A program made the translations under genes and the position numbers. Under the pieces are notes generated by a model, which did not search any database, had not been told where the DNA came from, and saw nothing but the letters and a program-made list of their open reading frames with translations. Below are positions 4,614 to 23,508 of a stretch of DNA of 28,592 nt, piece by piece. Positions within the stretch are counted from its first letter, which is position 1; every line of letters begins with the position of its first letter. The stretch comes from Aestuariivirgaceae bacterium (GTDB lineage: Bacteria; Pseudomonadota; Alphaproteobacteria; Rhizobiales; Aestuariivirgaceae), in the NCBI GenBank assembly GCA_036554625.1, contig DATBMX010000456.1, forward strand, positions 1 through 28,592, written 5' to 3'.

Positions 4614-4886
4614 ATGCTCCAACCTGGCACACAGCAGGCGATCGATCAGTCTCAGCTCGATAAGCTCCTCGATCTGATCGCCAAGGAAGGGATGGTCGAC
4701 CGCGCCAAGCTGTCGATGGACGCCACGATGGAGAGCCTGGGCCTCAAATCCTCCGACCTCCTCATTGTGCTGATGGCCGTGGAGGAGCAGTTCGGCGTCT
4801 ATATTCCCGTCGACGACAGCCTGTCCGACGCGCGCACGCTGGGCGATCTCGTCAACGCTCTCGCGGGCCACCTGCCGCATGGCTGA
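4614..4886 (+). CDS. Acyl carrier protein (NodF/AcpP-like) with atypical LGLKSSD motif
   Basis: 90 aa, acidic, LGLKSSDLLIVLMAVEEQFGVYIP and TLGDL helices. Stop overlaps the ketosynthase start (ATGGCTGA). Confidence 0.88.
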   Translation: MLQPGTQQAIDQSQLDKLLDLIAKEGMVDRAKLSMDATMESLGLKSSDLLIVLMAVEEQFGVYIPVDDSLSDARTLGDLVNALAGHLPHG

Positions 4887-6872: not shown

Positions 6873-6883
6873 AGGAGAACAAC

Positions 6884-7699: not shown

Positions 7700-7707
7700 T
7701 GGAGGTT

Positions 7708-7809
7708 CGTCATCGCGGCCTTGCATCCGGCCGTCTCGTGCCACATGCGAGAGATCACCAGGTCAAGCCCGGTGATGACGATCAACAACCGGGGCTTGAC
7801 CCGGCCATC
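7708..7809. repeat. Degenerate REP-like palindromic element (GGCTTGACCCGG family)
   Basis: Decayed left arm 7708-7737, right arm gagatcaccaggtcaagcccggtgatgacg 7751-7780, extra left arm ccggggcttgacccggccatc 7789-7809. Confidence 0.65.
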
Positions 7810-7873
7810 TTCCCAAAATAGCCAGTGCCGTTCCGGCGCTTTCATGAGTCGCGCCCAACAGTCGGAATGGAAC

Positions 7874-9655: not shown

Positions 9656-9694
9656 ATGCACTCCCGTCGCCGCCCCGCGTTCGTCAGATCCATT

Positions 9695-9772
9695 CGTCAC
9701 CCGACGCAAGTCGAAGTCCAGCTTCGGGCGGCTGCACACTGAAGCTGGATTCAGGCTTTCGCGGGAATGACG
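9695..9772. repeat. REP/REPIN-like palindromic element, copy 2 (inverted relative to copy 1)
   Basis: Reverse complement cgtcattcccgcgaaagcctgaatccagcttc...gaagctggacttcgacttgcgtcgggtgacg aligns arm-for-arm with 4452-4530. Confidence 0.75.
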
Positions 9773-9851
9773 AAGGGTGCAGCGCGTCTCGCGCTCCACT
9801 CTCCTTCGCCCGAAGCCTGCACGGCCGGCCGGTTCTTCGACGTGCTCCACA

Positions 9852-10766
9852 CTAAATATTGTGCCGCGTATATTGCGCCACATAGTCGAAACCGCCCAGC
9901 CGCTGCTTGTAGCCCTCCGACAGCGCGCGCGTGACCGGGCCCCAGGCGCCCGCCGACATGATCTTTCCGTTGATCGATTTCACCGGCACGAGGCACCAGC
10001 TCGTCGAGGTGATGAAGGCTTCCTCCGCAACATAGGCATCGTAGAGATCGATGTCGGCCTCGCGCAGAGGCACGCTGAGATCGCCGGCGATCTCCATGAC
10101 CGTCTGGCGCGAGAGACCCGCGAGCACATAGCGCTCATGCGGGGTCAGCACTTCTCCGTCGCGGACAATGAAGATGTTGGAGCCGAGGCCCTCGCACAGA
10201 CAGCCGCGGGTATCGAGCAGCACGCAGGTGGCCCCGGGTTTCAGCGCCTGCACCTCGACATCGCCGGCCACCAGATTGCCGTAGCTCAGCGATTTGTAGC
10301 GCGGGCTGATGGCCTCGGGCGGCGTGCGGCGAATGCCGCCCGGCGTGATCACCTCGAGACCCTCCTGCATGCCGCGCGCCCGCGCCTTGAGCGGCAGCGG
10401 AGAGCATTCGATGATGACCGTGGGAGCGCCCTCTGCCGAGGTGCGCGCAAGCGAGCGCACTCCGCGCGAGATCCATTGCGTCAGCCAATAATCATCATGT
10501 TCCGCGAGCAGCGGCAGGTTGCGCTCGAAAACCTCGAGCGTCAGATCGAGCATCTGCTTCGCCGACAGCCCCGGATCGAGTCGCAGATAGGCAAGCGACT
10601 TGTAGAGGCGGTCGATATGCTCGCGAAACAGAAAGGGCTTGTGGCCCGCGGAGCGCGCCGTATCGAAGGCGCCGTCGCCCACCGAAAACCCGTAGTCCCG
10701 GAACGACACCCGCACCTGGCTCTCCGGCACGATGCCGCCGTTGAAATATGCAACACGCTCATCCAT
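9852..10766 (-). CDS. PLP fold-type IV enzyme (branched-chain/D-amino acid aminotransferase or ADC lyase family)
   Basis: GDGAFDTAR, EHIDRL, catalytic Lys in YKSLSY, EGLGSNIF, LAGLSRQ, EEAFITST and GPVT motifs. Confidence 0.9.
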   Translation of the reverse strand: MDERVAYFNGGIVPESQVRVSFRDYGFSVGDGAFDTARSAGHKPFLFREHIDRLYKSLAYLRLDPGLSAKQMLDLTLEVFERNLPLLAEHDDYWLTQWISRGVRSLARTSAEGAPTVIIECSPLPLKARARGMQEGLEVITPGGIRRTPPEAISPRYKSLSYGNLVAGDVEVQALKPGATCVLLDTRGCLCEGLGSNIFIVRDGEVLTPHERYVLAGLSRQTVMEIAGDLSVPLREADIDLYDAYVAEEAFITSTSWCLVPVKSINGKIMSAGAWGPVTRALSEGYKQRLGGFDYVAQYTRHNI

Positions 10767-10781
10767 CCTGTTTCCCCAGAT

Positions 10782-11417
10782 CTACGCTCGCGCGCGCATC
10801 GACATTTCAAGCTCGCCATAGCCCGTGTAACGGTATTCATAGGCGAGCCTAAGCTTCTTCGCCGCCGCCATGGCGCGCTTGGCCAGCTCCTCATCGCGCG
10901 TCTGCGCCAGATAGACGAGCTTGGTGTAGTTGCCGAAATAGTCGGGCAGAAGCTCGGGGTGCTCCTTGAGGCCCAAGCCTTCCCAGATCAGCTTTTCGAA
11001 ATGACGGGCGAGATAATCGGTGAGGAAGAAGGCGGTGACGTCCGCTTCCGAGGTGCGCGAGAAATCGTCGTTGCCGCTGTAGAACGCGTAGCAATGCGGA
11101 CCATCGATGCGCTCCACGCCCTCCTCGGCCAGCATCTTGTCGAGCAGGCCCCCTGTGCCGCAATCGCCATAGACGACGAAGATTTTCTTGTAGTTCGCCC
11201 GGGCTTCGCGAATTTTGGCCCGCACGCCTTCCGCGATCAGCTGAGGCGTATTGTGCCACTTGGCGGGGAGACAGGCGACGTCGAACACCGTCCAGCGGTT
11301 GCGCTCGATGAGGGCGATGATTTCGCGCGCGAGTGCGCCGCAGGCGATGAGCAGAACATCGCCCTGGCCATTGCTGAAGGTGAACTCCTCCGAAGGACGC
11401 AGATCGATTTTCGTCAT
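10782..11417 (-). CDS. DUF1638-domain protein (implicated in cobalamin reactivation of split methionine synthase)
   Basis: IACGALARE, CLPAKWHNTP, VYGDCGTGG, GPHCYAFY and YTKLVYLAQ motifs. Directly follows the corrinoid protein. Confidence 0.88.
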   Translation of the reverse strand: MTKIDLRPSEEFTFSNGQGDVLLIACGALAREIIALIERNRWTVFDVACLPAKWHNTPQLIAEGVRAKIREARANYKKIFVVYGDCGTGGLLDKMLAEEGVERIDGPHCYAFYSGNDDFSRTSEADVTAFFLTDYLARHFEKLIWEGLGLKEHPELLPDYFGNYTKLVYLAQTRDEELAKRAMAAAKKLRLAYEYRYTGYGELEMSMRARA

Positions 11418-11429
11418 AAGTCCTGTCTG

Positions 11430-12131
11430 TCAGCCGGCGGCGGCCAGCTGATTGTGCTTGCGCGTCATGAAGCTCTTGGCCGTCTCCACCGCCACCGCGG
11501 CATCGCGGCAATAGGCGTCGGCGCCGATCGCCTTGGCGAACTCCTCGTTCAGGGGAGCACCGCCGACGAGCACGACATAATCGTCGCGCATGCCCTTCTC
11601 TCTCAGCGTGTCGATCACGACCTTCATATAGGGCATGGTCGTAGTGAGGAGCGCTGACATGCCGAGAATGTCCGGCTTGTGTTCCTCGATGGCGGCCAGA
11701 TATTTCTCCACCGGATTGTTGATGCCGAGGTCGATAACCTCGAAGCCCGCCCCTTCCATCATCATGCTGACGAGATTCTTGCCGATGTCGTGAATGTCGC
11801 CCTTCACCGTGCCGATGACCATCTTGCCGACGCGGGGAGCCCCGGTCTCGGCGAGCAGCGGCTTGAGAATGGCCATGCCGGCCTTCATGGCGTTGGCGGC
11901 AAGCAGCACCTCGGGCACGAAAAGGATGCCGTCGCGAAAATCGATGCCGACGATGCGCATGCCCTCGACGAGCGCTTCGGTCAGCACCTTGTAGGGCGCC
12001 CAGCCGCGCTCCAGCAAAATATGGACACCGTCCTCGATCTCCTCCTTGAGGCCATCGTAGAGATCGTCATGCATCTGCTGGGTCAGCTCTTCATCATTCA
12101 GCGACCTGAGATCGAGTTCGTCACCGCTCAT
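11430..12131 (-). CDS. Corrinoid (B12-binding) protein, cap + cobalamin domains of a split MetH
   Basis: GTVKGDIHDIGKNLV, LSALLTTT-like MSALLTTTM and VGGAP motifs. Start trimmed to MSGDELDL (12131). Confidence 0.93.
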   Translation of the reverse strand: MSGDELDLRSLNDEELTQQMHDDLYDGLKEEIEDGVHILLERGWAPYKVLTEALVEGMRIVGIDFRDGILFVPEVLLAANAMKAGMAILKPLLAETGAPRVGKMVIGTVKGDIHDIGKNLVSMMMEGAGFEVIDLGINNPVEKYLAAIEEHKPDILGMSALLTTTMPYMKVVIDTLREKGMRDDYVVLVGGAPLNEEFAKAIGADAYCRDAAVAVETAKSFMTRKHNQLAAAG

Positions 12132-12274
12132 TATCCATCGTCTCCAAAACGCCGGCTCCACAGCCTTTATAAAGGCAACCCGTCAAAATATTCCTTCCCC
12201 GGGCGACGCCCATCTGCGCGATTGCGACTTTTAGCGGCTGCCGGCGGAATTTGCCACCGGGGGACGAAAAACCA

Positions 12275-12300
12275 TCACCCCGGCCGCGAAGCCGGGGTGA
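12275..12300 (-). terminator. Rho-independent terminator of the YciF-like gene
   Basis: 10-bp perfect stem TCACCCCGGC-cgcgaa-GCCGGGGTGA, followed on the minus strand by TGGTTTTT. Confidence 0.8.
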
Positions 12301-12326
12301 GGGCCAGGCATCAGCCACGCGTCTGG

Positions 12327-12815
12327 CTATGCCGCCTTGCGGTTGACGTCGGATTCGGCGATTTCCGTCAGCATCTTGTCGGTCTCTTTCTCCTCATCCA
12401 GGGTTTCGCTCAGAACAGGCTCGGCGTCGTTCAGTCCGAGTTGCTTCGCCCAGGCAATCAAGGTGCCGTAGCGGGTGATCTCATAGTGCTCGACTGCTTG
12501 TGCCGCCGCGAGGAGGCCCGCGTCGAGAACCTCCGGATCCTTTACGTCCTTGAGCAGCTCCTGGGTTTCCTCCAGAAGCCCGTCGAGCGCGGGGCATTGC
12601 TCGCCGCGCGGCTTAAGATCAGCCATTTCAAACACCTGCTCGAGGCGAGCAAGCTGCTGTTCGGTCTGCGCCGCATGTTCCTCGAAGGCGCGCCGCAGTT
12701 CCGGGTTGTTTGCCTTTCTCGCCATGCGCGGCAGCTCCGACACGAGCTTCCTCTCGACGTAGAAAATGTCTCTGAGCGTGTGTTCGAACAGGTCCTGCAT
12801 CGATTGTATGGCCAT
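12327..12815 (-). CDS. yciF: YciE/YciF (DUF892) ferritin-like stress protein
   Basis: LRDIFYVERKL, FEEHAAQTEQQLARLEQVF, AAAQAVEHYEITRYGTL and TLDEEKETD motifs; AGGAG RBS. Confidence 0.92.
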   Translation of the reverse strand: MAIQSMQDLFEHTLRDIFYVERKLVSELPRMARKANNPELRRAFEEHAAQTEQQLARLEQVFEMADLKPRGEQCPALDGLLEETQELLKDVKDPEVLDAGLLAAAQAVEHYEITRYGTLIAWAKQLGLNDAEPVLSETLDEEKETDKMLTEIAESDVNRKAA

Positions 12816-12851
12816 CGTTATCTCCTGATTTGCCGGGTTTCGTCGCTCGGC

Positions 12852-12876
12852 AACGCCAGCTGCAAACGGGGGTTCC
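12852..12876 (-). promoter_or_regulatory. EcfG/sigmaT-type promoter for yciF
   Basis: Minus strand GGAAC-ccccgtttgcagctgg(16)-CGTT. Confidence 0.8.
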
Positions 12877-12942
12877 CTATGCCCTTATGCATTCGAAATA
12901 TCGCATGTCGTCTTGTCTTGCCGCGACAAACCCGCCGCTCAA

Positions 12943-12968
12943 GGAACCATTAACGATGCACGGGCGTT
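12943..12968 (+). promoter_or_regulatory. EcfG/sigmaT-type promoter for the PRC-barrel protein
   Basis: GGAAC-cattaacgatgcacggg(17)-CGTT. Confidence 0.8.
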
Positions 12969-13033
12969 GGTCGCCGGGAGCTCGCGGGGCCCCCTCGTCT
13001 CCGCGCGCTGTCTTGCCAAGGAAGGAAAGATCC

Positions 13034-13951
13034 ATGAACAAGCTAATCATAGCCAGTGCGGCGGCTGCCCTTATGATGGGCGCCTCCGCATCTGCTTTTG
13101 CACAGGCGACGCAACAAGATTGTCAGTCCATGTTCCAGAAGGCGGATGTGAACAAGGACAGCTCTCTGCAGGCTGAAGAAGCCAAGGTGTTCCTCGACGC
13201 GATGAACCAGGCGCAGGTTCAGCCGAAGGATGCCTCCCTGGTGACGCAGGACGAGTTCATGCAGGCATGCCAGAAAAATGCCTTCGCGAACATCGATCCC
13301 AACACCATAGGCACGGCTGCCGCGACGGGCACGGCAACCACGACCACCGACCAATCGGCGACGGCGACCACTACGGATCCGGCGGCGAGCGGCACGGCAA
13401 CCACGACCACCGACCCGGCGGCTGAAACGGCGACCACCACCGATCCGGCCGCGAGCGGCACCGCGGCGACAGAGACGACAGATCAGTCGGCGACGGGCAC
13501 GACCGCCACGACCGATCCGGCTGCCACGGGCACGGCGACTACCGACCAGACCGCATCAACCGATACAACCGGTCAGGCCGAGCAGCCGAGCGGTGAACAA
13601 GCTCTTGCCGCGCCGTCCGGTTTGCTGGCGTCCAACATCATCGGCACGACCGTCTATTCGCAGGACAATCAGTCGATTGGTGACATCAACGACATTATCC
13701 TGTCCCAGGAGGGTCAGCCGAGCCAGGTCATCGTCGGCGTGGGCGGCTTCCTCGGCATCGGTGAAAAAGACGTCGTTCTTGATATGAACAAGCTGCAGAT
13801 CGCCGCAACGGATGATGGCAACGTCAAGATCGTGGCTCAGACTTCTCAGGAAGAGCTGAGAAACATGCCGGCTTTCATGCGCCAGGGCGAGGCTGCGAGC
13901 GGAGGCGAGCAGCCACAGCCGGATCAGCAGCAACAGCAACAGCAGCAGTAA
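13034..13951 (+). CDS. Secreted protein: signal peptide, EF-hand-like domain, Thr/Ala repeat linker, PRC-barrel, poly-Gln tail
   Basis: MNKLIIAS...ASAFA signal; DVNKDSSLQAEE loop; PRC-barrel LLASNIIGTTVYSQDNQSIGDINDIIL...VIVGVGGFLGIGEKDV. AAGGA RBS before ATG 13034. Confidence 0.88.
   Translation: MNKLIIASAAAALMMGASASAFAQATQQDCQSMFQKADVNKDSSLQAEEAKVFLDAMNQAQVQPKDASLVTQDEFMQACQKNAFANIDPNTIGTAAATGTATTTTDQSATATTTDPAASGTATTTTDPAAETATTTDPAASGTAATETTDQSATGTTATTDPAATGTATTDQTASTDTTGQAEQPSGEQALAAPSGLLASNIIGTTVYSQDNQSIGDINDIILSQEGQPSQVIVGVGGFLGIGEKDVVLDMNKLQIAATDDGNVKIVAQTSQEELRNMPAFMRQGEAASGGEQPQPDQQQQQQQQ
13310..13565 (+). repeat. Imperfect intragenic tandem repeats encoding (G)TATTTD(P/Q)(A/S)A units
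   Basis: Seven TTD(P/Q) units, e.g. ggcacggcaaccacgaccaccgac occurs twice. Confidence 0.8.
13925..13948 (+). repeat. CAG/CAA run encoding eight terminal Gln
   Basis: CAG CAG CAA CAG CAA CAG CAG CAG TAA. Confidence 0.85.
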
Positions 13952-13979
13952 GCCTCCCCGCCTTTACTGCTGAATGAGA

Positions 13980-14011
13980 GAGCCGGGAAGGCCTTGAGGC
14001 TTTCCCGGCTC
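13980..14011. terminator. Hairpin terminator between the convergent PRC-barrel gene and ligD
   Basis: GAGCCGGGAAGGCC-ttga-GGCTTTCCCGGCTC followed by CTTTCT. Confidence 0.75.
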
Positions 14012-14015
14012 CTTT

Positions 14016-16514
14016 CTACTTCCTGGGGGTTCTGCCTTTGCCGCGCAGATAGTCGAGCACGTTAGGGTCAATGCGTTGGCGCGTTCTGAAGAAATCTGAA
14101 AGCCAGGGATCCTTGCGTCGCGGCGCGGTCTCCAGCGTGAATTCATCGGCGCTTTCGAGCTTCTTCAGCTCCGTCCATGACACCGGCACGGCCACGCTGG
14201 CATTGGGCTTGGCGCGCAGCGACCAGGGAAGTATGGCGCTTGCCGTCAGCCGATTGCGAAGCCAGTCGATGTAGATTTTTCTCTTCCTCTTCTCCTTCGA
14301 TGCGGTGGCGATGAAGCGCTCGGGGTCGGCTTCGGCAAGCCCGCGCGCGATGCCGGAAGCAAAATCGGTGATCTCATCCCAGCCTTGGCTTGCGTCGAGA
14401 GGAATGATGACGTGAACGCCCTTGCCGCCGGTGATCAGCGGAAAGCTCTCGAGCTCGATCCCGCGCAGCAGCTCGCGCAGTTCGAAAGCCGCGTCGCGCA
14501 CGGCGGCGAATTTTACGGCGGGATCGGGATCGAGGTCGAGGACCACGCGGTCGGGATTGTTGAGCTTCGGCAGGCGGGCGCCCCAGCCATGAAGCTCGAT
14601 CACGCCGAACTGGGCGGCCGTCGTGAGGCCATCGGCGCCGTGGAGAGCGATGAAATCCTTATGCTCGCCTTCTGGGTCGGGCACCCGCCTGATGCCGGCG
14701 CTCATGCCGGGCAGCTGGTGCCGCTGGAAGAACGTCTCTCCCTTGAGGCCTTCTGGCGCGCGAACGAAGCTGATGGGCCTGTCCTGCAGGTGCGGAAGGA
14801 TGCGATCGGCGACGGCAAGGTAATAGGAAGCGGAATCGCCCTTGGTGAAACGCGGCTTTGGAAAGATGATCCGCTCTGGATGGGTGATGGAGGACGGAAC
14901 GGGCGGCAGCGCCTGCGAACGGCGGGGCTTCGTCACATTCTTTGCGCTTGCGGCTTTCCCTTTCGCCTTCGCCCCTGTCATCGTTTCAATTCCTTGCGTG
15001 CGGTCCTCTCGCCACCCCAGGAAACGCGCCTGCCGGAGCTGGCCGTCGCTGGTCCAGCCCTGGAACTCAACTTCGGCCCGCATTACGGGCTCGACCCAGC
15101 GCGATTTGCGCGGCGCCTTGTCGAGGCGGCGGACGGGCGGACGCGAGCTGCGCTTGAGCGCATTCAGCTTATCATAGGTCTTCTCGAGCTCCTCGCTGCC
15201 GAAGCCCGTGCCGACGCCGCCGACGAACTTCAGCCCTTCGCTGGTTTCCGAAGCGGCGAGTAGAGACGAGAATTGGCGGCGTTCGGATGGCTTGTAGCCG
15301 ATTATGATGAAATCCTCGCGGCGGGCCGTCTTGGTCTTGACCCAATTGGGCGAGCGACGCGATTCATAGAAAGAGGATGTGCGTTTCGAAACGATCCCTT
15401 CCGCGCCGAGAGCGGCGGCCTTTTCGAACACCAGCGGGCCATCTGCCTCGATGAAGGAGGAGAGTCTGATCGCCCGCCCGTCTGCCTCGCGCAGCGTCTC
15501 CTCGAGTTCCTGCTTGCGCCGGGAAAGCGGCAGCCCTCGCAGATCCTTGCCGTTGCGCATCAGAATGTCGAAGACGACGTAGCTGATCTCCCCCCTCTTG
15601 TCCTTGAGAGCCTGAACGAGGGCCGCGAAGTCAGTGAGGCCTGCCTGGTCGAAAACCACGGCCTCGCCATCGAAAAGCGTCTTGCGAAAGCCAAGTCTCG
15701 CCAGATGTTCGGCAACGGTGGGGAACCGTGCCGTCCAGTCCAGCCCCTCGCGCGTGTAGAGGCGAACACTCTGTGCGTGCAGCGCGGCTTCGAGACGATA
15801 ACCATCGAGTTTCGTCTCATGCAGCCATCCTTCTCCCGGCGGCGGGCGCTTATGCAGCTCGCACATCATGGGAGAAACGAAGAGGGGCAAGGCTTTCGCA
15901 GGAGTCTTCCTGACGGGCCTCGGCGGCGCCTTGCGGCGCTGCGCCTTTCGCGGCGGTTTGCCTTTCTCGATTTCGGCCTTGGAACGTCCGGTAGAGACGC
16001 TGGCTGAAAACGTCTCGATCAAGGGCTCCTTGGCGGCAAAAGCGTCGCGCTCCTTGATCAGAAGCCAATTCTCGCGCCTCTCCTTGCCCTTCATCAGGAC
16101 CAACGCCCAGTTCCCCTTGAGACGATCGCCGTGAAGGGTGAACTTCAAGGATCCTTCTTTGAGGCCGCGGCGGGGATCCTCATTCGGTTCCCATGTGCCC
16201 CTGTCCCACAGCATGACAGTGCCTGCGCCATAATTGCCTTCTGGAATCACGCCCTCGAAGTCGGCATAGGACAGGGGATGGTCTTCGGTGCGCACAGCCA
16301 GTCTCTTGTCGGCGGGATTGAAGCTCGGACCGCGGGTGACGGCCCAGCTCAGCAGCACGCCGTCGAGCTCGAGGCGAAAATCATAATGTTCGCGCGTTGC
16401 CCAATGATGCTGAACGACGAAACTGTTGCCGCGCCGCGCGCCCCCGATGCGCGGTTCTGGAGTCTTGGAGAAATCTCGCTTCGCCTTGTAAGTCGAAAGC
16501 GACCGTTTGGCCAT
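14016..16514 (-). CDS. ligD: NHEJ DNA ligase D (phosphoesterase - ligase - polymerase)
   Basis: PE domain FVVQHHWATREHYDFRLELDGVLLSWAV, ligase ETKLDGYR and EGIVSKR, polymerase ITHPER, DLDP and GGKGVHV. Confidence 0.97.
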   Translation of the reverse strand: MAKRSLSTYKAKRDFSKTPEPRIGGARRGNSFVVQHHWATREHYDFRLELDGVLLSWAVTRGPSFNPADKRLAVRTEDHPLSYADFEGVIPEGNYGAGTVMLWDRGTWEPNEDPRRGLKEGSLKFTLHGDRLKGNWALVLMKGKERRENWLLIKERDAFAAKEPLIETFSASVSTGRSKAEIEKGKPPRKAQRRKAPPRPVRKTPAKALPLFVSPMMCELHKRPPPGEGWLHETKLDGYRLEAALHAQSVRLYTREGLDWTARFPTVAEHLARLGFRKTLFDGEAVVFDQAGLTDFAALVQALKDKRGEISYVVFDILMRNGKDLRGLPLSRRKQELEETLREADGRAIRLSSFIEADGPLVFEKAAALGAEGIVSKRTSSFYESRRSPNWVKTKTARREDFIIIGYKPSERRQFSSLLAASETSEGLKFVGGVGTGFGSEELEKTYDKLNALKRSSRPPVRRLDKAPRKSRWVEPVMRAEVEFQGWTSDGQLRQARFLGWREDRTQGIETMTGAKAKGKAASAKNVTKPRRSQALPPVPSSITHPERIIFPKPRFTKGDSASYYLAVADRILPHLQDRPISFVRAPEGLKGETFFQRHQLPGMSAGIRRVPDPEGEHKDFIALHGADGLTTAAQFGVIELHGWGARLPKLNNPDRVVLDLDPDPAVKFAAVRDAAFELRELLRGIELESFPLITGGKGVHVIIPLDASQGWDEITDFASGIARGLAEADPERFIATASKEKRKRKIYIDWLRNRLTASAILPWSLRAKPNASVAVPVSWTELKKLESADEFTLETAPRRKDPWLSDFFRTRQRIDPNVLDYLRGKGRTPRK

Positions 16515-16518
16515 CGGT

Positions 16519-17388
16519 CTAGCGCCGGCGAGAGGCTGCTCTGGCGGGTTTCTTCCGCGACGCGGGCTTCGTCTCGCGGGCAGCAGCGCGCGACGACCCT
16601 GCCCTTTCGACGGAACGCTTCAGGGCGTCGGTGAAGTCGATCACCTTGCCGCGGCTCTCTTCGAGTTCATCCTCGCCGACCTCGACGCCCTTGCCGCCCT
16701 TGAGCTTGGAGCGCACAAGCTCGCGCAGCGCCTCGGCATAGTGATTTTTGTACTCGGTGGGATCGAAGGGAGAGGCCCGCTGGCGTATCAGGTCCTTGGC
16801 CATATGGATCAGATCCTGGCGCAGGCGCGAGCCGCCCACATCGGCAAACACCTTGTCGGCATCCTTGATCTCCTCGGCGTAGCGCAGGGTTTCGACCATC
16901 ATCCCCTTGCCGCTCGGTTTCAACGCAACCAGGTTCTCGCGGCCGCGCATGGTCAGCTGGCCGATGCCAACCTTCTTCTCTTCGCGCAGGGCATCGCGGA
17001 CCACGCGGAAACCCTCATCCGCGTCCTCGCCGTCCGGCAGCACAAAATACGGCCGGTCAAAATAGAGAGGGTCGATCTCGCAGGCGTCGACGAACTGAAC
17101 GAGCTCGATCGTGTGCCGCGTCGCAAGCTTCAGATTGTCGAGTTCTTCATCCTCGAGCAGGACATATTCACCGGGCTCCACCTCATAGCCGTGCACGATC
17201 TCTTCCTTGTCGACGGGGCCCACGCCTGGCGCCACTTTTTCATACCGGATGCGCTGCTTCGATTCGCGATGCACCTGGTGGAAACTGATATCCTTCTCCC
17301 TTTGCAAGGCGGTGAGCAGGCGCACGGGGATCGATACGAGCGCCAAGCGCAGGTGGCCTTTCCAGAATGTCCTGATGCGCTGTGCCAT
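16519..17388 (-). CDS. ku: NHEJ Ku protein
   Basis: WKGHLRLALVSIPVRL, IDPLYFDRPYF, YKNHYAEALRELV and KVIDFTDALKRS motifs; basic C-terminal tail. Confidence 0.97.
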   Translation of the reverse strand: MAQRIRTFWKGHLRLALVSIPVRLLTALQREKDISFHQVHRESKQRIRYEKVAPGVGPVDKEEIVHGYEVEPGEYVLLEDEELDNLKLATRHTIELVQFVDACEIDPLYFDRPYFVLPDGEDADEGFRVVRDALREEKKVGIGQLTMRGRENLVALKPSGKGMMVETLRYAEEIKDADKVFADVGGSRLRQDLIHMAKDLIRQRASPFDPTEYKNHYAEALRELVRSKLKGGKGVEVGEDELEESRGKVIDFTDALKRSVERAGSSRAAARETKPASRKKPARAASRRR

Positions 17389-17442
17389 GAAACCCTCTCA
17401 GACTCCATCTCGCTCCAGGCAGTCTCTACGCGGCTGAAAACC

Positions 17443-17625
17443 TCAGGATTTGCGCTGGGGGAGGCCTTTGCGTTTCGTTGACGCGAATTCTTCAAGCTGC
17501 TTTTCCGACATGGAGGCGACCATGTGCCGGGAGGCGCCCTTGAGCCGGGATTTGGGCTGCTCGCCGCGCTTGGCCGCCAACGCGGCGCCTGCGGCTTTCT
17601 GCTGGGCTTTCGATCTTGCTGGCAT
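17443..17625 (-). CDS. DUF3008-family small basic protein
   Basis: MPARSKAQQKAAGAALAAKRG...SMSEKQLEEFASTKRKGLP is the family signature. Confidence 0.92.
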   Translation of the reverse strand: MPARSKAQQKAAGAALAAKRGEQPKSRLKGASRHMVASMSEKQLEEFASTKRKGLPQRKS

Positions 17626-17654
17626 GGAGCAAACTTTCGGTTGCGACGCAATTC

Positions 17655-17680
17655 AACGTCGATATCCGCCTTCGAGTTCC
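17655..17680 (-). promoter_or_regulatory. EcfG/sigmaT-type promoter for DUF3008-ku-ligD
   Basis: Minus strand GGAAC-tcgaaggcggatatcga(17)-CGTT. Confidence 0.8.
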
Positions 17681-17689
17681 GGCGGCCGC

Positions 17690-17714
17690 GGAACCCAAGC
17701 CGCGGCGAAGCGTT
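17690..17714 (+). promoter_or_regulatory. EcfG/sigmaT-type promoter for the stress SDR
   Basis: GGAAC-ccaagccgcggcgaag(16)-CGTT. Confidence 0.8.
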
Positions 17715-17742
17715 GGCGCTGACGCCGTTACGCGAATCCGCC

Positions 17743-18600
17743 ATGTCGAAAAATCCCAAAAAGTTTCCGCCGCAATCCCAACAGCGCCAGCCCGGGCGCG
17801 AACATCTCATGCATCCCGAGCCGGACTGCCAGCCGAAATTTCCGGGCTGCGGGCGCCTGAAGAACAAGGTGGCGCTGGTGACCGGCGGCGACAGCGGCAT
17901 TGGGCGCGCCTGCTGCGTGTTGTTCGCGCGCGAAGGCGCGGATGTCGCCTTCGTTTATCTCGAGGAGGAGAAAGATGCGCGGACAACGAAGGAGCTCATC
18001 GAGCAGGAGGGCAAGAAGGCGCTTCGCATCAGGGGCGATGTGAGATCGCTCGCCTTCTGCAAATCAGCCGTTGCCCGATGCTTCGATCGCTTTGGCAGGC
18101 TCGACGTGCTCGTGAACAACGCCGCCGAGCAGCACACGCAGGAAGAGCTCGTGAAGATCGCGCCGGATCAGCTGAAACGAACCTTCGAGACCAATGTGTT
18201 CGGTTATTTCTTCATGACGCAGGCGGCGCTGCCGCATTTGAAGAATGGTGCAAGCATCGTCAACACGACCTCCGTCACCGCATACCGCGGCAGCCCACAT
18301 TTGATCGACTACAGCGCAACGAGAGGTGCGATCGTGACTTTCACGCGTTCGCTTTCAAAGTCGCTCGCCGGCAAAGGCATAAGGGTGAATGGCGTTGCGC
18401 CTGGGCCGATTTGGACACCGCTCATTCCCTCGAGCTTCAGCGCCGGGGAAGTGGCGAAGTTCGGACAGGACACCCCCATGGGCCGAGCCGGCCAGCCCTA
18501 TGAGGTGGCGACCTGTCATCTGTTCTTGGCGTCGGCGGAATCATCCTACATGAGCGGACAGGTGCTGCATCCCAATGGCGGAGAAATGGTGAACGGCTGA
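17743..18600 (+). CDS. General stress SDR oxidoreductase (YdaD/YghA-like)
   Basis: FPPQSQQRQPGREHLMHPEP N-terminus, TGGDSGIGRA, NNAAEQ, YSATRGA (Arg where SDRs usually have Lys) and GPIWTPLIP. Start trimmed to ATG 17743. Confidence 0.92.
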   Translation: MSKNPKKFPPQSQQRQPGREHLMHPEPDCQPKFPGCGRLKNKVALVTGGDSGIGRACCVLFAREGADVAFVYLEEEKDARTTKELIEQEGKKALRIRGDVRSLAFCKSAVARCFDRFGRLDVLVNNAAEQHTQEELVKIAPDQLKRTFETNVFGYFFMTQAALPHLKNGASIVNTTSVTAYRGSPHLIDYSATRGAIVTFTRSLSKSLAGKGIRVNGVAPGPIWTPLIPSSFSAGEVAKFGQDTPMGRAGQPYEVATCHLFLASAESSYMSGQVLHPNGGEMVNG

Positions 18601-18605
18601 ATCGA

Positions 18606-18782
18606 TCAGCCGAACACGGCGACATAGACGAGCACGAAACCCAGAACCACTCCTGCAATCCCCAGGATCAGGACATAGCGCACATTGTGGCCGGTCACGC
18701 CCTGGCGTGCCTTGTTCGTTTCTGTGCGCGCGAAATCCTCAGGGTCCTGTGGCGAGTAATCCGAGCTTGGATCAGCAGTCAT
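18606..18782 (-). CDS. 58-aa C-terminally anchored membrane protein, hypothetical
   Basis: ARQGVTGHNVRYVL followed by one TM segment. AAAGG upstream of ATG 18782 and an EcfG promoter upstream. Confidence 0.8.
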   Translation of the reverse strand: MTADPSSDYSPQDPEDFARTETNKARQGVTGHNVRYVLILGIAGVVLGFVLVYVAVFG

Positions 18783-18846
18783 CGTGCGGGCCTTTCCTAT
18801 CGGTGCTCGCAGGCAACGCAAGTCCTGCCGCCGCGGACGAGGGTGG

Positions 18847-18871
18847 AACGCAATTGGTTTCGCAAAGTTCC
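18847..18871 (-). promoter_or_regulatory. EcfG/sigmaT-type promoter for the 58-aa protein
   Basis: Minus strand GGAAC-tttgcgaaaccaattg(16)-CGTT. Confidence 0.75.
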
Positions 18872-18907
18872 CCGCGGGCCCAGGCAGCGACCAGCAAGAG
18901 CCAAGCC

Positions 18908-18932
18908 GGAACCTCACGTCAGTGATGGCGTT
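18908..18932 (+). promoter_or_regulatory. EcfG/sigmaT-type promoter for smORF + lytic transglycosylase
   Basis: GGAAC-ctcacgtcagtgatgg(16)-CGTT. Confidence 0.8.
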
Positions 18933-18958
18933 TGCCCTCCAAGGACGGAGGAGCACCC

Positions 18959-19063
18959 ATGTTGATCGTGCCGATTGTTTTGGCCTTCGCCATCGCCTTT
19001 GCCGCGGCCTTCCTTTACAAGCCGCAGCCGCAAGCAATCAGGATCAGATCACGACGGCGCTAG
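18959..19063 (+). CDS. 34-aa membrane smORF (MLIVPIVLAFAIAFAAAFLYKPQPQAIRIRSRRR)
   Basis: Not in the ORF track. GGAGGAG RBS 5 nt before ATG, promoter 26 nt upstream, TM helix plus Arg-rich tail, stop 11 nt before the next gene. Confidence 0.72.
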   Translation: MLIVPIVLAFAIAFAAAFLYKPQPQAIRIRSRRR

Positions 19064-19074
19064 CGGGGGACGTT

Positions 19075-19557
19075 ATGCTGAAACAGCTGGTCGTGCTTGT
19101 CTGCCTCGCGGGGTTGCTGACGGGGGATGCTTCTTCGACCTACGCGGATAATCGCACTCTCGTTGTTGCCGCCGCGCAGCGCCATGGCGTGCCGGTCGAT
19201 CTCGCCCTGCGCGTAGTGCACATCGAAAGCAGCAACAATTGTTTCGCCCGCGGCACGCAAGGCGAGCTCGGACCGCTGCAGATAAAACCGGCAACAGCGC
19301 GGCTGCTCGGCTACCAGGGCCCCGATTGGGCGCTGCAATCTTGCGGCGCCGGTCTTGAATGGGGCATGAGACATTTGGCGCTGGCGCTCCAGCGCGGCGG
19401 CGTGTGGAAGCACAATCAGGGGCTTTGGGCGAGGCAGAAGAGTGCCAATGGCGCGAAATATGAGAAGATCATCCTCATGACCTACATCGCGAGCCGGCTC
19501 GCGCCGCGAAACCGGAAGCTGAGCATGATCGCCCGCGCAACATCGGGCGACATGTAG
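19075..19557 (+). CDS. Secreted minimal lytic transglycosylase (SLT domain)
   Basis: Signal peptide, catalytic IES, GPLQIKPATAR, LEWGMRHL and HNQG. GGGGGA RBS before ATG 19075. Confidence 0.85.
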   Translation: MLKQLVVLVCLAGLLTGDASSTYADNRTLVVAAAQRHGVPVDLALRVVHIESSNNCFARGTQGELGPLQIKPATARLLGYQGPDWALQSCGAGLEWGMRHLALALQRGGVWKHNQGLWARQKSANGAKYEKIILMTYIASRLAPRNRKLSMIARATSGDM

Positions 19558-19585
19558 CCCCTTCGCAGGTTGTGCGGGCAGCCAA

Positions 19586-19611
19586 GGAACAAGCAAAGCG
19601 CGGTCCACGTT
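19586..19611 (+). promoter_or_regulatory. EcfG/sigmaT-type promoter for the Gly-rich protein
   Basis: GGAAC-aagcaaagcgcggtcca(17)-CGTT. Confidence 0.8.
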
Positions 19612-19646
19612 CCTTGTGCAGTGAGGTCCTTTCATAGGAGAGACAT

Positions 19647-20261
19647 ATGCATCGCAATGATCACTATGGGCGCGGACGCGTTGGCCGCGACCGCGACGAT
19701 GAACGACGCTATTTCGAGGGCCGTCGGGGTGAACGCGCGCGAGGCGGCGGTCAGGGTTTTGGTGGCGAGGACTATCGCGGCATGTCGCGTGGCGGCTATC
19801 CCGGCTATGGCGCGGGAGACGCCGGATGGGGCGGAGGTTATCCCGGCTATGGCGACGAGCAAGCTGCTGTGTTTAGCCGTGGTCAGCATGGCTATGCGCA
19901 GGCCTTTGGCGAGCATGGCCAAGGCTTTGAATCGGGCTGGCAGGGCGAATATAGCCAGGGCGCGCAAAGCGGCTGGCAGGGCAGCCAAGCTCGAGGTTTC
20001 GGAAGCCACGGTCAGGGCCGCCGAGGCGGCTGGGGCGAGGGCGGATACCAGGGCGAGCATGGCCACGAAGACCGCCGCTTCGATGACGACTACCGGCATT
20101 GGCGCAGCGAGCAGCTCAAGAAATTCGACCAGGATTATGAGGCCTGGCGAAACGAGCGGCGGCAGAAATTCAGTGAAGAATTCGACAAATGGCGCGCTTC
20201 GCGCCCGGAAAGGACTGAAGGGTCAAGGGTCACGAGCCAGTCCGATATGCGAAACAAATAA
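19647..20261 (+). CDS. Gly/Tyr/Arg/Gln-rich low-complexity protein with C-terminal DDDYRHWR...FDQDY...FSEEFDKWR helical motif
   Basis: AGGAGA RBS. The C-terminal motif resembles that of SWFGD-type alphaproteobacterial stress proteins (recalled). Internal GGYPGYG repeat at 19791-19811 and 19833-19853. Confidence 0.8.
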   Translation: MHRNDHYGRGRVGRDRDDERRYFEGRRGERARGGGQGFGGEDYRGMSRGGYPGYGAGDAGWGGGYPGYGDEQAAVFSRGQHGYAQAFGEHGQGFESGWQGEYSQGAQSGWQGSQARGFGSHGQGRRGGWGEGGYQGEHGHEDRRFDDDYRHWRSEQLKKFDQDYEAWRNERRQKFSEEFDKWRASRPERTEGSRVTSQSDMRNK

Positions 20262-20269
20262 ACGAAATT

Positions 20270-20301
20270 CTGCGGAACCGAATCAATTGGCCGCAGTTTT
20301 T
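20270..20301 (+). terminator. Possible terminator after the Gly-rich gene
   Basis: CTGCGG...CCGCAG stem followed by TTTTT. Confidence 0.5.
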
Positions 20302-20346
20302 AGCCTGTGGGCGGTGCCTTCCCCCTCCCCGCCCCTAAGACTCAAG

Positions 20347-20369
20347 GGCCCAACCCTCGTGGTTGGGCC
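20347..20369. terminator. Hairpin between convergent genes
   Basis: GGCCCAACC-ctcgt-GGTTGGGCC followed by TCTTCTTT. Confidence 0.6.
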
Positions 20370-20382
20370 TCTTCTTTGAGCC

Positions 20383-20616
20383 TCAGGATCTCTTCGCAAC
20401 CTCGCGCAGCACAGCCCACTTGATCTCTTCCGGCGTCATTCCGGTCTCGCCATAGGCAAGAATATGGCGGGCAAGTGCCGTGCGCGTGGCTTCGGCATGG
20501 ACATACTGGGCAAGCGGGCTTCCGCTCGTGACCAGATCCTCCCATGCACTGTCGAAAATATTCTGAAACTGGAACACTCGCTGGGGCGAGTAGAACTCAC
20601 TACGCATCATTACCAT
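20383..20616 (-). CDS. 77-aa hypothetical helical protein
   Basis: GGAGG RBS 7 nt upstream. The YSP...FDSAWEDL...RTALARHILAYGETG pattern recalls a widespread small rhizobial family. Confidence 0.65.
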   Translation of the reverse strand: MVMMRSEFYSPQRVFQFQNIFDSAWEDLVTSGSPLAQYVHAEATRTALARHILAYGETGMTPEEIKWAVLREVAKRS

Positions 20617-20708
20617 TGGGCGGCCTCCCCAAAAGCATTCTAGCCGATCAGAGGGTGAAGGGAAATCACCAATATCTGACGCTTTTATGACGGGGAGCGA
20701 AACGAGGG

Positions 20709-21728
20709 CTATTCGCGGGCGCGGCGGCGCTCACGCTTCGCCCCAGCGGCAGCGGCCGCATCAATGCCCTTTGCCAAGGCCGAAACGCTGCCCAGCCGCT
20801 GCTCGACGAATTCGATGGACGGTCTTTCGCCCTTCTCATGCGCCTCAAGCGCCGCCCGCATGGCCCGAAGATGCTGGGGCGTGGTGCCGCAGCAGCCGCC
20901 GATGATCCGTGCGCCGGCATCAAGCGCGATACAGGCATATTCGGCCATGAGCTCGGGTGTGCCGTCATAATGGATATGGCCTTCGACATACTGCGGGATG
21001 CCGCAGTTTCCTTTTGCCACGACGATGGCGTTGGGATCGGCGGCGGTGATGCCGAGGATGGTGGCGATGAGCTCGGACGCTCCGACGCCGCAGTTTGCGC
21101 CGATCGCTGCCGGCTGCTTCGGCAACGTCGTTGCAAGCGTGGCAAAAGCGCGGGGCGTGATGCCCATCATTGTTCGCCCGTTCGTGTCGAAGCTCATGGT
21201 TGTGACGATGGGCAATTTCGCCGTGCTTGCGCCTTCAACCGCCGCGCGCAGCTCCTCCTCCGATGACATGGTCTCGATCCACAGCACGTCAACTCCGCCT
21301 TCCTTGAGCGCGGCGGCCTGCTCGGCGAATGCCGCCACGCCTTGTTCATTCGGCAGCGTGCCCACAGGCTCGAAGAGCTCCCCTGTCGGGCCCATGGATC
21401 CTGCCACGGCCACGGGGCGCCCGGCCGCATCGGCTTCGGCGCGTGCATTGCCGGCCGCCGCCATGTTGATGGCGCGCACGCGATCCTGGGCGTCATGGAG
21501 CTTGAGGCGATAGCGATTGCCGCCGAAACTGTTGGTGAGAATGATGTCGGCGCCCGCCTCTATGAAGCCGCGATGCAGCTGACGCACGCGCTCGGGGTGA
21601 TCGAAGTTCCACATCTCCGGAGCGTCGCCCGAAGTGAGCCCCATGTGGAACAGATTCGTGCCTGTCGCCCCATCGGCCAGGAGCCAGGGCTTCGTCTCCA
21701 GCAAATGCAGAAAGTCGGTCTTGCTCAT
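20709..21728 (-). CDS. bmt: Homocysteine S-methyltransferase (Bmt; stand-alone Hcy-binding module of split MetH)
   Basis: LADGATGT, TNSFGGN, ETMSSEEE, Zn ligands GANCG and IGGCCGTTP. Start trimmed to MSKTDFL (21728). Confidence 0.9.
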   Translation of the reverse strand: MSKTDFLHLLETKPWLLADGATGTNLFHMGLTSGDAPEMWNFDHPERVRQLHRGFIEAGADIILTNSFGGNRYRLKLHDAQDRVRAINMAAAGNARAEADAAGRPVAVAGSMGPTGELFEPVGTLPNEQGVAAFAEQAAALKEGGVDVLWIETMSSEEELRAAVEGASTAKLPIVTTMSFDTNGRTMMGITPRAFATLATTLPKQPAAIGANCGVGASELIATILGITAADPNAIVVAKGNCGIPQYVEGHIHYDGTPELMAEYACIALDAGARIIGGCCGTTPQHLRAMRAALEAHEKGERPSIEFVEQRLGSVSALAKGIDAAAAAGAKRERRRARE

Positions 21729-21754
21729 GATAGCTCCGCTGCAGGGGGATATAA

Positions 21755-21778
21755 TCACATAAAGATATCTTTATGTGA
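21755..21778. promoter_or_regulatory. Perfect 24-bp palindromic operator over the bmt promoter (SahR-like box)
   Basis: TCACATAAAGAT|ATCTTTATGTGA. It fills the spacer of a minus-strand TTCACA(21779-21774)-N17-GATTAT(21756-21751) promoter. Confidence 0.75.
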
Positions 21779-21785
21779 AGACCCA

Positions 21786-22730
21786 TCATGCCGTGGGCGA
21801 GCCATAATACAGGCTCGAGACGTGCTGGGCCTCGGCAAAAAACAGCCAGCGCTCGATGAGCGCGGCCAGGACGGCGCACAGCAGTCCCGCAATCGCCAGC
21901 GCCAAACCGAAACCGCCGGGAACGATGGCGCCGGACAGTGTCAGGGCTGCCGAGAAGAACAGGCCGGCGAAAACATAGCGCCGCAACTGGTCGCGATGCT
22001 TGCGCGCCACGCGGTAGCCCATCTCGCGCATCACGAAATTTTCCGCCGTATGGGGCGCCTCCCATTGGCGCACCACGCCTTGCGCCCCAAGTCCCGTCGC
22101 CTGCTCGATCGTATATGCGACAGGGAGCGCATCGATCATTCGCCAGTAGCTCCACTTGCACAGAGCGACGGAGACCAGGAAGAACGCCGATATGCGGCCG
22201 AGCGCCGGCGCATTCACGCCGAAAGCTGTGCTCAGGACCACGAGCAGGACCGAGCCCGTGGCAAGCGCCCACAGGAAATAGCCTGCATCGACCAGGGGAT
22301 GATGCCATTGGCGAATGGTTGAGAGCGAGGAATAGATCTTGGCCGTGCAGTAGAGGCTCGCCATGCACATCAGCAACGTGCCGAGAGCGGCCAGCGAAAG
22401 CAGGCGCGGGCTTGCAACCAGTCCCGCCCACAGAAGCGCAAAGGCAATGGCCAGAGGGAACACCGCAAGCGCGGCCAGGGCTTCGCGCGAAAGCCAGGAC
22501 GAGCGCCATTGTGTGAAGGCTCGCCAGGCGCGTTCCGGCCGCCCCAGGTGAAAGGTCGAAGCCATGAGACCGAAGCCGATGAGAATGACTGCCGTAGCGC
22601 AGGCGATTGCTGCGAAACGCCAGTCTGACGCTTGCCCATGGAGAAGTGCAGCTAGGGTGAGCCACATGAGAAGGCCGAAGCCCGCGCCCGAGACGGTGGT
22701 GAACAGGATGACCGAATAGGCTGGGTGCAT
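21786..22730 (-). CDS. soeC: DmsC-like membrane anchor of sulfite dehydrogenase
   Basis: MHPAYSVILFTT, HLGRPERAWRAFTQWRSSWLSRE and ERWLFFAEAQH; eight TM segments. Confidence 0.9.
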   Translation of the reverse strand: MHPAYSVILFTTVSGAGFGLLMWLTLAALLHGQASDWRFAAIACATAVILIGFGLMASTFHLGRPERAWRAFTQWRSSWLSREALAALAVFPLAIAFALLWAGLVASPRLLSLAALGTLLMCMASLYCTAKIYSSLSTIRQWHHPLVDAGYFLWALATGSVLLVVLSTAFGVNAPALGRISAFFLVSVALCKWSYWRMIDALPVAYTIEQATGLGAQGVVRQWEAPHTAENFVMREMGYRVARKHRDQLRRYVFAGLFFSAALTLSGAIVPGGFGLALAIAGLLCAVLAALIERWLFFAEAQHVSSLYYGSPTA

Positions 22731-22743
22731 GAGGGCGCGGATA

Positions 22744-23508
22744 TCAGCGCGTCAACATTCTGTCGGCCCAGGCGAACAGGCGCTCGGACAGGCTGCTGCC
22801 GTAAGCTGCGCGGCGCTCGAGCGGTTCGGCCCCGCTCTCCTCCCAGCTTCGCCGGCGCGGGCGCGGCGGCAAATATTTGTTGACCGGGCGATAGCCGATC
22901 TCAGGCAAGAGATCATAGCCGCCGCGCTCGGCGACCAGCCGCGAAACGGCGCTGTTCGGATCCCCGAGATCGCCGAAATGGCGGGCGCTCGTGGGACAGG
23001 CGCGCACGCAGGCAGGCTGCCGGTCCTCGGGTGCAAGATTGTCGTTGTAGATTCTGTCGATGCACAGCGTGCACTTCTTCATCACGCCATCGTCATAGTC
23101 ATATTCGCGGGCGCCATAGGGGCAGGCCCAGGAGCACAGCTTGCAGCCGATGCATGTCTCGGGATCGACCAGCACGATCCCGTCCTCGGCGCGCTTGTAG
23201 GAGGCGCCGGTCGGGCACACCGTTACGCAAGCCGCATCCTCGCAGTGAAGACATGAGCGAGGGAAATGCACGATGTGCGTTTCCCCCGCGCCTGCCTCCG
23301 AAATTTCATAGGAGTGGATCCGGTTGAGCCATGTTCCGGTGGGTTCCGGCCCATAGGCATCGCGATCACCGAGCGGTGCGGAATAGCCCTGCGCATTCCA
23401 CTCCTTGCAGCTCGTGGCGCATGCGTGGCAGCCGACGCATGTGTCGAGATCGATGACGAGGCCAAGCTTCTTCTGGCCGGGCGCGCTGGTGTCCGGGAGC
23501 GAGGTCAT
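22744..23508 (-). CDS. soeB: 4x[4Fe-4S] subunit of sulfite dehydrogenase
   Basis: CVGCHACATSCKEWN, SCLHCEDAACVTVCP, CIGCKLCSWACP and CTLCIDR...CVRACP. Confidence 0.93.
   Translation of the reverse strand: MTSLPDTSAPGQKKLGLVIDLDTCVGCHACATSCKEWNAQGYSAPLGDRDAYGPEPTGTWLNRIHSYEISEAGAGETHIVHFPRSCLHCEDAACVTVCPTGASYKRAEDGIVLVDPETCIGCKLCSWACPYGAREYDYDDGVMKKCTLCIDRIYNDNLAPEDRQPACVRACPTSARHFGDLGDPNSAVSRLVAERGGYDLLPEIGYRPVNKYLPPRPRRRSWEESGAEPLERRAAYGSSLSERLFAWADRMLTR

Follow-up and report, generated by a model that had tools for sequence, protein, structure and literature searches.

The 28,592-nucleotide (nt) stretch of DNA analysed here, hereafter the window, is the whole of contig C276 in a metagenome-assembled genome (MAG) of an uncultured soil bacterium of the Aestuariivirgaceae (Hyphomicrobiales; assembly of 3.02 Mb in 500 contigs, estimated 84% complete, 61% GC). 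Between positions 12327 and 20616 it carries a compact block of genes that very probably consists of seven transcription units, each headed by the type of promoter that is read by the general-stress sigma factor EcfG (ECF15); an eighth unit probably encodes a small RNA (sRNA). A pattern search of the window returned exact GGAAC-N16/17-CGTT matches at 12852(-), 12943(+), 17655(-), 17690(+), 18847(-), 18908(+) and 19586(+), which are all seven of the sites named in the original prediction, where the region was described as a dense general-stress island.

All seven motifs are intergenic and each is oriented toward a start codon. Measured from the -10 box, their distances to the start codons are, in coordinate order, 36, 65, 29, 28, 64, 26 and 35 nt, exactly the span of 26-65 nt that had been claimed. 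The promoters serve 10 of the 11 open reading frames (ORFs) of the block, and thus nearly every gene, as had also been proposed; the exception is a gene for a 77-amino-acid (aa) protein at the far end, which has no motif. Six of the seven promoters are arranged as three divergent pairs, with gaps of 66, 9 and 36 nt from -35 box to -35 box, and no sigma-70-like promoters were found before the block genes. The elements of the block are, in order (each promoter being predicted from an exact motif):

12327-12815, minus strand: DUF892 (YciE/YciF-like ferritin-like) protein, 162 aa (Pfam PF05974, E 3e-58)
12852-12876, minus strand: EcfG-type promoter (GGAACC-N16-GCGTT) for DUF892, whose ATG at 12815 is 36 nt away
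12943-12968, plus strand: EcfG-type promoter of the secreted PRC-barrel gene
13034-13951, plus strand: secreted 305-aa protein with an EF-hand-like segment (weak match), a Thr-rich spacer and a PRC-barrel (Pfam PRC, E 2e-12)
14016-16514, minus strand: LigD, 832 aa, with phosphoesterase, ATP-ligase and primase-polymerase domains (Pfam LigD_N, DNA_ligase_A_M/C, LigD_Prim-Pol)
16519-17388, minus strand: Ku, the end-binding protein of non-homologous end joining (NHEJ), 289 aa (Pfam Ku, E 6e-50)
17443-17625, minus strand: DUF3008 small basic protein, 60 aa (Pfam PF11450, E 1e-28)
17655-17680, minus strand: EcfG-type promoter of the DUF3008-ku-ligD unit
17690-17714, plus strand: EcfG-type promoter of the SDR gene, divergent from the ku promoter at a -35 to -35 distance of 9 nt
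17743-18600, plus strand: short-chain dehydrogenase/reductase (SDR), 285 aa (Pfam adh_short_C2, E 6e-60)
18606-18782, minus strand: 58-aa protein (TM58) with one C-terminal transmembrane helix (no Pfam or NCBIfam match)
18847-18871, minus strand: EcfG-type promoter of the 58-aa membrane protein gene
18908-18932, plus strand: EcfG-type promoter of the microprotein-transglycosylase unit
18959-19063, plus strand: 34-aa membrane microprotein (mp34), with a strong GGAGGAG ribosome-binding site
19075-19557, plus strand: secreted SLT-like lytic transglycosylase, 160 aa (Pfam SLT, E 5e-4; 20.0 bits, just below the cut-off of 21.3)
19586-19611, plus strand: EcfG-type promoter of the Gly-rich protein gene
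19647-20261, plus strand: 204-aa Gly/Tyr/Trp-rich protein, probably disordered, with a conserved charged C-terminal segment (no Pfam or NCBIfam match)
20383-20616, minus strand: 77-aa protein, inside the block's range, with no EcfG motif even when one mismatch is allowed

The ku and ligD genes lie 4 nt apart on one strand and, to judge from the predicted phosphoesterase, ligase and polymerase domains, the pair has the architecture of a bacterial NHEJ operon. The SDR scores 415.7 bits against NCBIfam NF005214 (cut-off 413); a sequence search for relatives of DUF3008 in the PDB returned none; and no Pfam or NCBIfam family was found for the 58-aa, 34-aa, 204-aa and 77-aa proteins. A terminator scan placed a hairpin after the DUF892 gene (12300-12275), a terminator 3' of the PRC-barrel gene (13980-14011), and a terminator-like hairpin after the Gly-rich gene. 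Only 14 homologs of the Gly-rich protein were found, 13 of them metagenomic and one from a Brevundimonas MAG, and none is functionally named. Over this gene a crude gene caller favoured an antisense ORF (19632-20099), which we rejected because the plus-strand protein has homologs with E values down to 1e-45 as well as a motif-preceded ortholog in a sister species.

An eighth exact match lies beyond the block, at 4342(-), in front of another small gene:

4342-4366, minus strand: eighth predicted EcfG-type promoter, exact motif
4032-4307, minus strand: 91-aa membrane-anchored Thr/Pro-rich protein, preceded by the motif at 4342-4366 (nothing in Pfam; weak NCBIfam matches, far under their cut-offs)

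Motif statistics and conservation in sister species

If these motifs were merely chance occurrences in GC-rich DNA, without function, they should be no more frequent, and no better placed, than comparable patterns. At the level of raw totals this is indeed what is seen: The genome contains 81 exact matches to the motif and 92 to the reversed pattern, a parity that recurs in its relatives, and about half of the 81 matches are intragenic and probably do reflect chance. Because the reversed pattern is equally frequent, raw genome totals say nothing about enrichment, and we dropped them as a measure; only counts of intergenic, correctly oriented sites discriminate.

By that count, for which a motif had to be intergenic (by the crude gene caller) and to face a gene start no more than 250 nt away, the genome has 37 sites, plus 2 in the window that the gene caller overlooked (39 altogether), whereas the control patterns (the reversed motif, three scrambled and two wrong-spacer versions) yield 5, 1, 5, 2, 1 and 6. 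Within the window, the 8 exact motifs compare with a mean of 0.32 (maximum 2) in 100 dinucleotide-preserving shuffles, a 25-fold enrichment. The sites are also clustered: 15 of the 39 fall on only two contigs, C276 and C430, and in 20,000 random placements of 39 sites not one put seven within 6.8 kb, the maximum being five, reached once.

The promoter-like sites share bases outside the searched pattern. After GGAAC, the first base is C or T in 72% and the next is T in 54%, while the base before CGTT is G or A in 80% and C in only 5%; the remaining 42 matches, mostly intragenic, show none of these biases. In the window, G or A precedes CGTT in all eight motifs, and C or T follows GGAAC in seven of the eight. 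These results, along with the conserved footprints and the RNA 5' limits described below, rule out a chance origin for practical purposes, leaving it a vanishingly small probability.

Judged by Ku (78% identity), the closest public relative is another Aestuariivirgaceae MAG (G001), and a second sister species of the same genus (G002) is also available. Both keep the block beside the same flank, made up of genes for homocysteine S-methyltransferase (HcyMT), DmsC, a Fer4 protein and a molybdopterin oxidoreductase. In both, exact motifs occur at the orthologous positions before the SDR gene, the 58-aa gene and the microprotein-SLT unit. The PRC-barrel gene has an exact motif in G002 and a one-mismatch site in G001; an exact or one-mismatch motif precedes DUF3008-ku in G001 and ku directly in G002; and the DUF892 and Gly-rich genes were found, each behind an exact motif, in G002 and not in G001. 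In alignments of the sister species, the GGAAC/GTTCC and CGTT boxes stand out as invariant or nearly so amid intergenic DNA that is only ~60-70% identical. Across the three species AAGGAACCATT is invariant at the PRC-barrel promoter, as are GTTCC at the ku promoter and both GGAAC and CGTT at the SDR promoter.

DUF3008 is 82% identical in G001 and was not found in G002; the 58-aa protein is 54-59% and the SLT-like protein 62-69% identical in the two relatives; and the 34-aa microprotein is 53% identical in G001. The 77-aa gene lies next to the HcyMT gene in all three species.

Several observations concern the contents of the block in these relatives. The LigD beside Ku in G001 has no ATP-ligase core and consists of two ORFs, one for the phosphoesterase (238 aa) and one for the polymerase (320 aa; L004, 10879-12445); either a separate gene takes over ligation, or NHEJ is in decay in this genome. 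In the place of the Gly-rich gene, G001 has a 220-aa ORF (L104, about 1918-2577, minus strand) in which an HD-type motif, as in RelA/SpoT-like hydrolases, was recognised by eye only. It also has a 2440-aa ORF beyond the PRC-barrel gene, and G002 carries an extra 8.8 kb between the DUF892 and PRC-barrel genes.

Outside the genus, an exact motif lies directly before Ku, or before a short gene preceding Ku, in many loci of Hyphomicrobiales and Rhodobacterales. It was absent before Ku in the Sphingomonadales loci examined, which fits the looser -10 box (GTT) published for Sphingomonas. Orthologs of the SDR, and at some loci of DUF3008 or DUF892, also stand beside Ku-LigD in Sphingomonadales, Rhodobacterales and other Hyphomicrobiales, a recurring neighbourhood that hints at a functional link between these proteins and stress-induced end-joining.

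The sigma factor and transcription in soil

A regulator able to read such promoters should be encoded in the genome, and contig C430 has the canonical order of genes: an HWE/PAS histidine kinase, PhyR (a sigma-like domain joined to a receiver domain), a divergent pair of motifs, NepR (PF18557, 53.6 bits) and the ECF (extracytoplasmic function) sigma factor EcfG. The two exact motifs between phyR and nepR-ecfG lie at 17012-17036(-) and 17067-17091(+). C430 thus encodes an EcfG whose own promoter matches those of the block, so that the sigma factor invoked for them exists in this organism; the attribution of the motif to the PhyR-NepR-EcfG response gains from these autoregulatory promoters. The regulatory cluster (6300-18200) has seven exact motifs in 11 kb, the motif-preceded neighbours of the regulators being genes for CsbD, PRC-barrel, DUF72 and M50-CBS proteins and a 75-aa ORF; a Dps-type ferritin gene also lies inside the cluster, with no exact motif directly before it.

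The families represented fit such a regulon. The general stress regulons of sigma-S and sigma-B classically include YciE/YciF, CsbD, Dps and SDRs of the YdaD/YghA type. In Sinorhizobium meliloti, ku3-ku4 and ligD4 require RpoE2 (Dupuy et al. 2018, PMC6379672), and an EcfG box precedes a ku gene in ~90% of the alphaproteobacteria that carry ku (PMC6379672). In Sphingomonas melonis, expression of a Ku gene and a PRC-barrel gene depends on EcfG, and both have the motif upstream (PMC6599016). For Salmonella, a preprint describes DUF892/YciF as a stress protein that binds iron (bioRxiv 10.1101/2023.01.20.524870).

In soil metatranscriptome runs, as much as a quarter of the 31-mers of the block is present, and evidence of expression comes from the Logan contigs of four such runs. 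These contigs are unstranded; we compared them with positions 3500-23000 of the window, used only ends that align with zero mismatches, and refer in what follows to the contigs listed (there are 154 further pieces). Four of the eight promoters have RNA contigs that stop 16-26 nt beyond the -10 box, an offset that is as expected when a k-mer assembler drops the thinly covered ends of transcripts. For the motif at 4342 (-10 end 4342), every one of the four runs has a contig end at 4321 or 4322. At the PRC-barrel promoter (-10 end 12968), contigs start at 12992 and 12994, the latter fused directly to the Illumina adapter. At the ku promoter, a contig covering 17362-17639 ends 16 nt past the -10 box (17655) and bridges DUF3008 into ku. 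At the microprotein promoter (-10 end 18932), the start lies at 18950 for contigs of two runs and at 18960 for those of a third; they cross the 34-aa ORF into the SLT gene, which is likewise covered by RNA contigs. None of the contigs listed crosses a motif. The original prediction was to fall if no transcription started downstream of the motifs; for four of the eight, the contig ends agree with such starts, though at low resolution.

RNA depth is about zero over the ACP/KS operon (4802-6103) and the DmsC gene (21728-23000), so carry-over of DNA is not the source of the signal. The highest depth of the stretch is on the PRC-barrel gene, whose Thr-rich repeats may draw in contigs of other organisms; the DUF892 gene has a depth of 9-14 in two runs, and the Gly-rich gene has a contig at 19677-20094, among others. 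The contig at the 91-aa gene (4032-4366) is the most reproducible of the stretch.

Several points weigh against assigning the block to EcfG as a single module. The case for one functional module derives only from co-location and shared promoters. Unstranded assembled contigs give 5' limits 16-26 nt from the -10 box and not exact starts. Ku, LigD and the SDR are at low RNA depth; none of the contigs listed falls on TM58, and the sole DUF892 contig among them fits only partly, with 3 mismatches. Two promoters are without direct RNA support and a third has depth only, and the nearest listed contig of the Gly-rich gene starts 66 nt past the -10 box, which makes it uninformative. Finally, the genome encodes an ECF sigma paralog 41% identical to EcfG (C321:71-535), by which some or all of these promoters might be read, as well as another NepR-like ORF (C282:2864-2959). 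Both of the latter are on short contigs and may form a paralogous EcfG/NepR pair.

These paralogs raise the alternative that the motifs are real ECF-type promoters read mainly by another ECF sigma factor, such as that on C321, in which case the block would answer a signal narrower than that of general stress. Many alphaproteobacteria have EcfG paralogs whose specificities overlap (PMC3892343, PMC7083833). Yet the canonical nepR-ecfG and phyR promoters share with the block sites both the exact motif and its extended features, there is no sigma factor gene in or adjoining the block, and the gene families of the block fit canonical EcfG regulons, all of which makes it improbable that another sigma factor is the main reader of these sites. 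That EcfG itself reads them is the probable assignment, made at the level of sequence from the motif, the regulators, the conservation and the gene families.

If EcfG does read the seven promoters in this soil bacterium, its activation would jointly induce the DUF892 ferritin-like protein, the secreted PRC-barrel protein, the DUF3008-Ku-LigD end-joining operon and the SDR, together with the two small membrane proteins, the SLT-like transglycosylase and the Gly-rich disordered protein. We infer that these products would act together in the survival of non-growing cells. The EcfG reading proposed at the outset is supported, so far as sequence, comparison and public RNA data go, by the footprints in sister species, by the published status of Ku/LigD and PRC-barrel genes as targets, and by the RNA ends in soil.

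A candidate small RNA

Downstream of the Gly-rich gene, a further promoter-like sequence precedes what may be a non-coding transcript:

20274-20378, plus strand: near-consensus promoter GGAAC-N16-aGTT (20274-20298) followed by a candidate sRNA of ~75 nt, with a terminator at 20346-20370

The candidate (20305-20378) would fold into a hairpin with a 14-nt C-rich loop, UGCCUUCCCCCUCC, followed by an intrinsic terminator; for the 76-nt RNA the fold z-score is -3.2. A 27-nt core, TGGGCGGTGCCTTCCCCCTCCCCGCCC, is invariant in G000, G001 and G002, with variable flanks, and the terminator stem shows one compensatory pair across the three species. The element is retained in G001, where the gene upstream of it has been replaced.

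At the gathering threshold Rfam has no match anywhere in the window, and a more permissive setting yields only a sub-threshold MmgR hit. The best Rfam match of the candidate is RF00519 (suhB/MmgR, alpha-r8), at 28.7 bits over the full model and hence short of the gathering score of 41, so that it cannot be filed as a member of that family. The genome has a canonical MmgR on contig C262 (68.9 bits), with which the candidate shares CCUCCC, UA(A)GACU and the terminator, whereas the 5' hairpin differs. It is likewise comparable to GsrN, in that both lie behind an EcfG-type box and have a C-rich loop, although the -10 box of the candidate has one mismatch (aGTT or tGTT). A wide distribution has been predicted for EcfG-dependent sRNAs of the GsrN type with C-rich loops (PMC5869019).

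RNA contigs stop 6-9 nt beyond the -10-like box, at 20304 and 20307. The contigs in question (20307-20643 and 20304-20621, alongside a third at 20384-20616) cover the convergent 77-aa gene, which is clearly expressed in soil from its own 5' end (about 20616-20643), and the candidate may instead be the 3' untranslated region of that gene. We lean, with modest confidence, toward an EcfG-driven small RNA of the alpha-r8/GsrN type.

Origin of the block and its place among known regulons

The original prediction called the region an island. The genes on either side of the block, for HcyMT (20709-21728) and a protein with a B12-binding domain (11430-12131), keep their order and strand across the family. 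They are directly adjacent in three genera (G007, G008 and G018), and in nine other genera examined the junction is filled with 1.4-5 kb, or 11.5 kb, of unrelated genes lacking the motif. Only the three genomes of the present genus, among those examined, have the stress block at this junction, where the two flanking genes are separated by 8.6 kb here, 16.2 kb in G001 and 19.6 kb in G002.

A block that occupies in one genus a junction that is tight, or holds unrelated and motif-less genes, in the others of the family could have arrived horizontally as a genomic island, one unit with its EcfG promoters already in place and dedicated to desiccation or dormancy. Such an origin would be expected to leave traces, but the GC content of the block (0.60-0.63) is that of the genome (0.61), no integrase or transposase Pfam domains occur among its proteins, and the window has neither a tRNA gene nor a pair of direct repeats flanking the block. 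Moreover, the three species differ from one another by piecemeal gains and losses of genes, and in G009 the same LigD-Ku-SDR-DUF892 genes are found elsewhere, within a few kb of the resident phyR locus, which counts 8 motifs in 12.8 kb, a difference in location that favours rearrangement of native genes. On these grounds we rejected a mobile island, which we regard as quite unlikely. Of the original term, what stands is the genus-specific filling of the HcyMT/B12 junction; the signs of mobility are missing.

The block therefore looks like native DNA, specific to this genus at this junction, that was gathered by rearrangement and not by a mobile element; most likely, native genes of the regulon accumulated at a permissive site. 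Dense EcfG clusters recur in two other genera of the family, that of G009 and that of G013 (8 motifs in 11.4 kb). Our literature search found no published description of dense clusters of EcfG promoters as islands.

Each of the four RNA runs has a contig in which 21 nt of the B12-binding gene (11879-11899) are joined to 21 nt of the HcyMT gene (21039-21059), with one extra T and unlike sequence beyond the joint on both sides. We considered whether it derives from an allele without the block and rejected this, given that only 21 nt match on each side before the sequences become unlike; it is most likely a transcript of another organism.

The closest characterised parallel is the RpoE2 regulon of S. 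meliloti (Sauviac 2007; Schlueter 2013, PMC3616915; Dupuy 2018, PMC6379672), which has the same GGAAC-N16/17-CGTT consensus, ku and ligD under the control of the sigma factor, sigma-dependent sRNAs, autoregulated nepR-ecfG and phyR homologs, and mostly genes without assigned function. There, 76 genes have transcription start sites with an RpoE2 motif, as do 23 sRNAs, and 150 of 202 RpoE2-dependent genes are without a predicted function (PMC3616915). The present case differs in that the organism is an uncultured Aestuariivirgaceae MAG, in that seven units are packed into 6.8 kb, and in that a DUF3008 gene heads the ku-ligD operon. The EcfG regulon of S. melonis Fr1 (PMC6599016) is alike in its Ku and PRC-barrel targets and in having the motif within 100 bp of the start codon; it differs in its looser -10 box (GTT), and its targets are published as a table of single genes. 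Canonical general stress response loci, in which phyR is divergent from nepR-ecfG and flanked by csbD or dps, are likewise dense in EcfG promoters that are often divergent, but the block has no regulator gene and is on a different contig from the C430 locus.

A more ambitious reading is that the block is a lineage-specific survival cassette, active in soil, with uncharacterised members that would cooperate with Ku-LigD; DUF3008 and the SDR, for instance, would be accessory to stress-induced end-joining and the sRNA would supply an EcfG-driven post-transcriptional arm. Its basis is the recurrence of DUF3008 and SDR genes beside Ku-LigD in three alphaproteobacterial orders, and we hold it to be rather doubtful, if worth keeping in mind.

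No new mechanism is involved: EcfG control of ku and ligD has already been published, dense EcfG promoter clusters are common, and most of the gene families are well known. What is new is that the block is transcribed in soil, that its placement at a variable junction is specific to the genus, and that an sRNA candidate accompanies it. The block offers a clean and coherent example of how the alphaproteobacterial general stress regulon is laid out in an uncultured lineage from soil and, unusually for a MAG, there is direct evidence of soil transcription just downstream of predicted promoters, including those of a 34-aa microprotein and the 60-aa DUF3008 protein. It also provides a set of candidates for a role in stress survival: the DUF3008 protein and SDR linked to Ku-LigD, the Gly-rich disordered protein, the two tiny membrane proteins and the MmgR-like sRNA.

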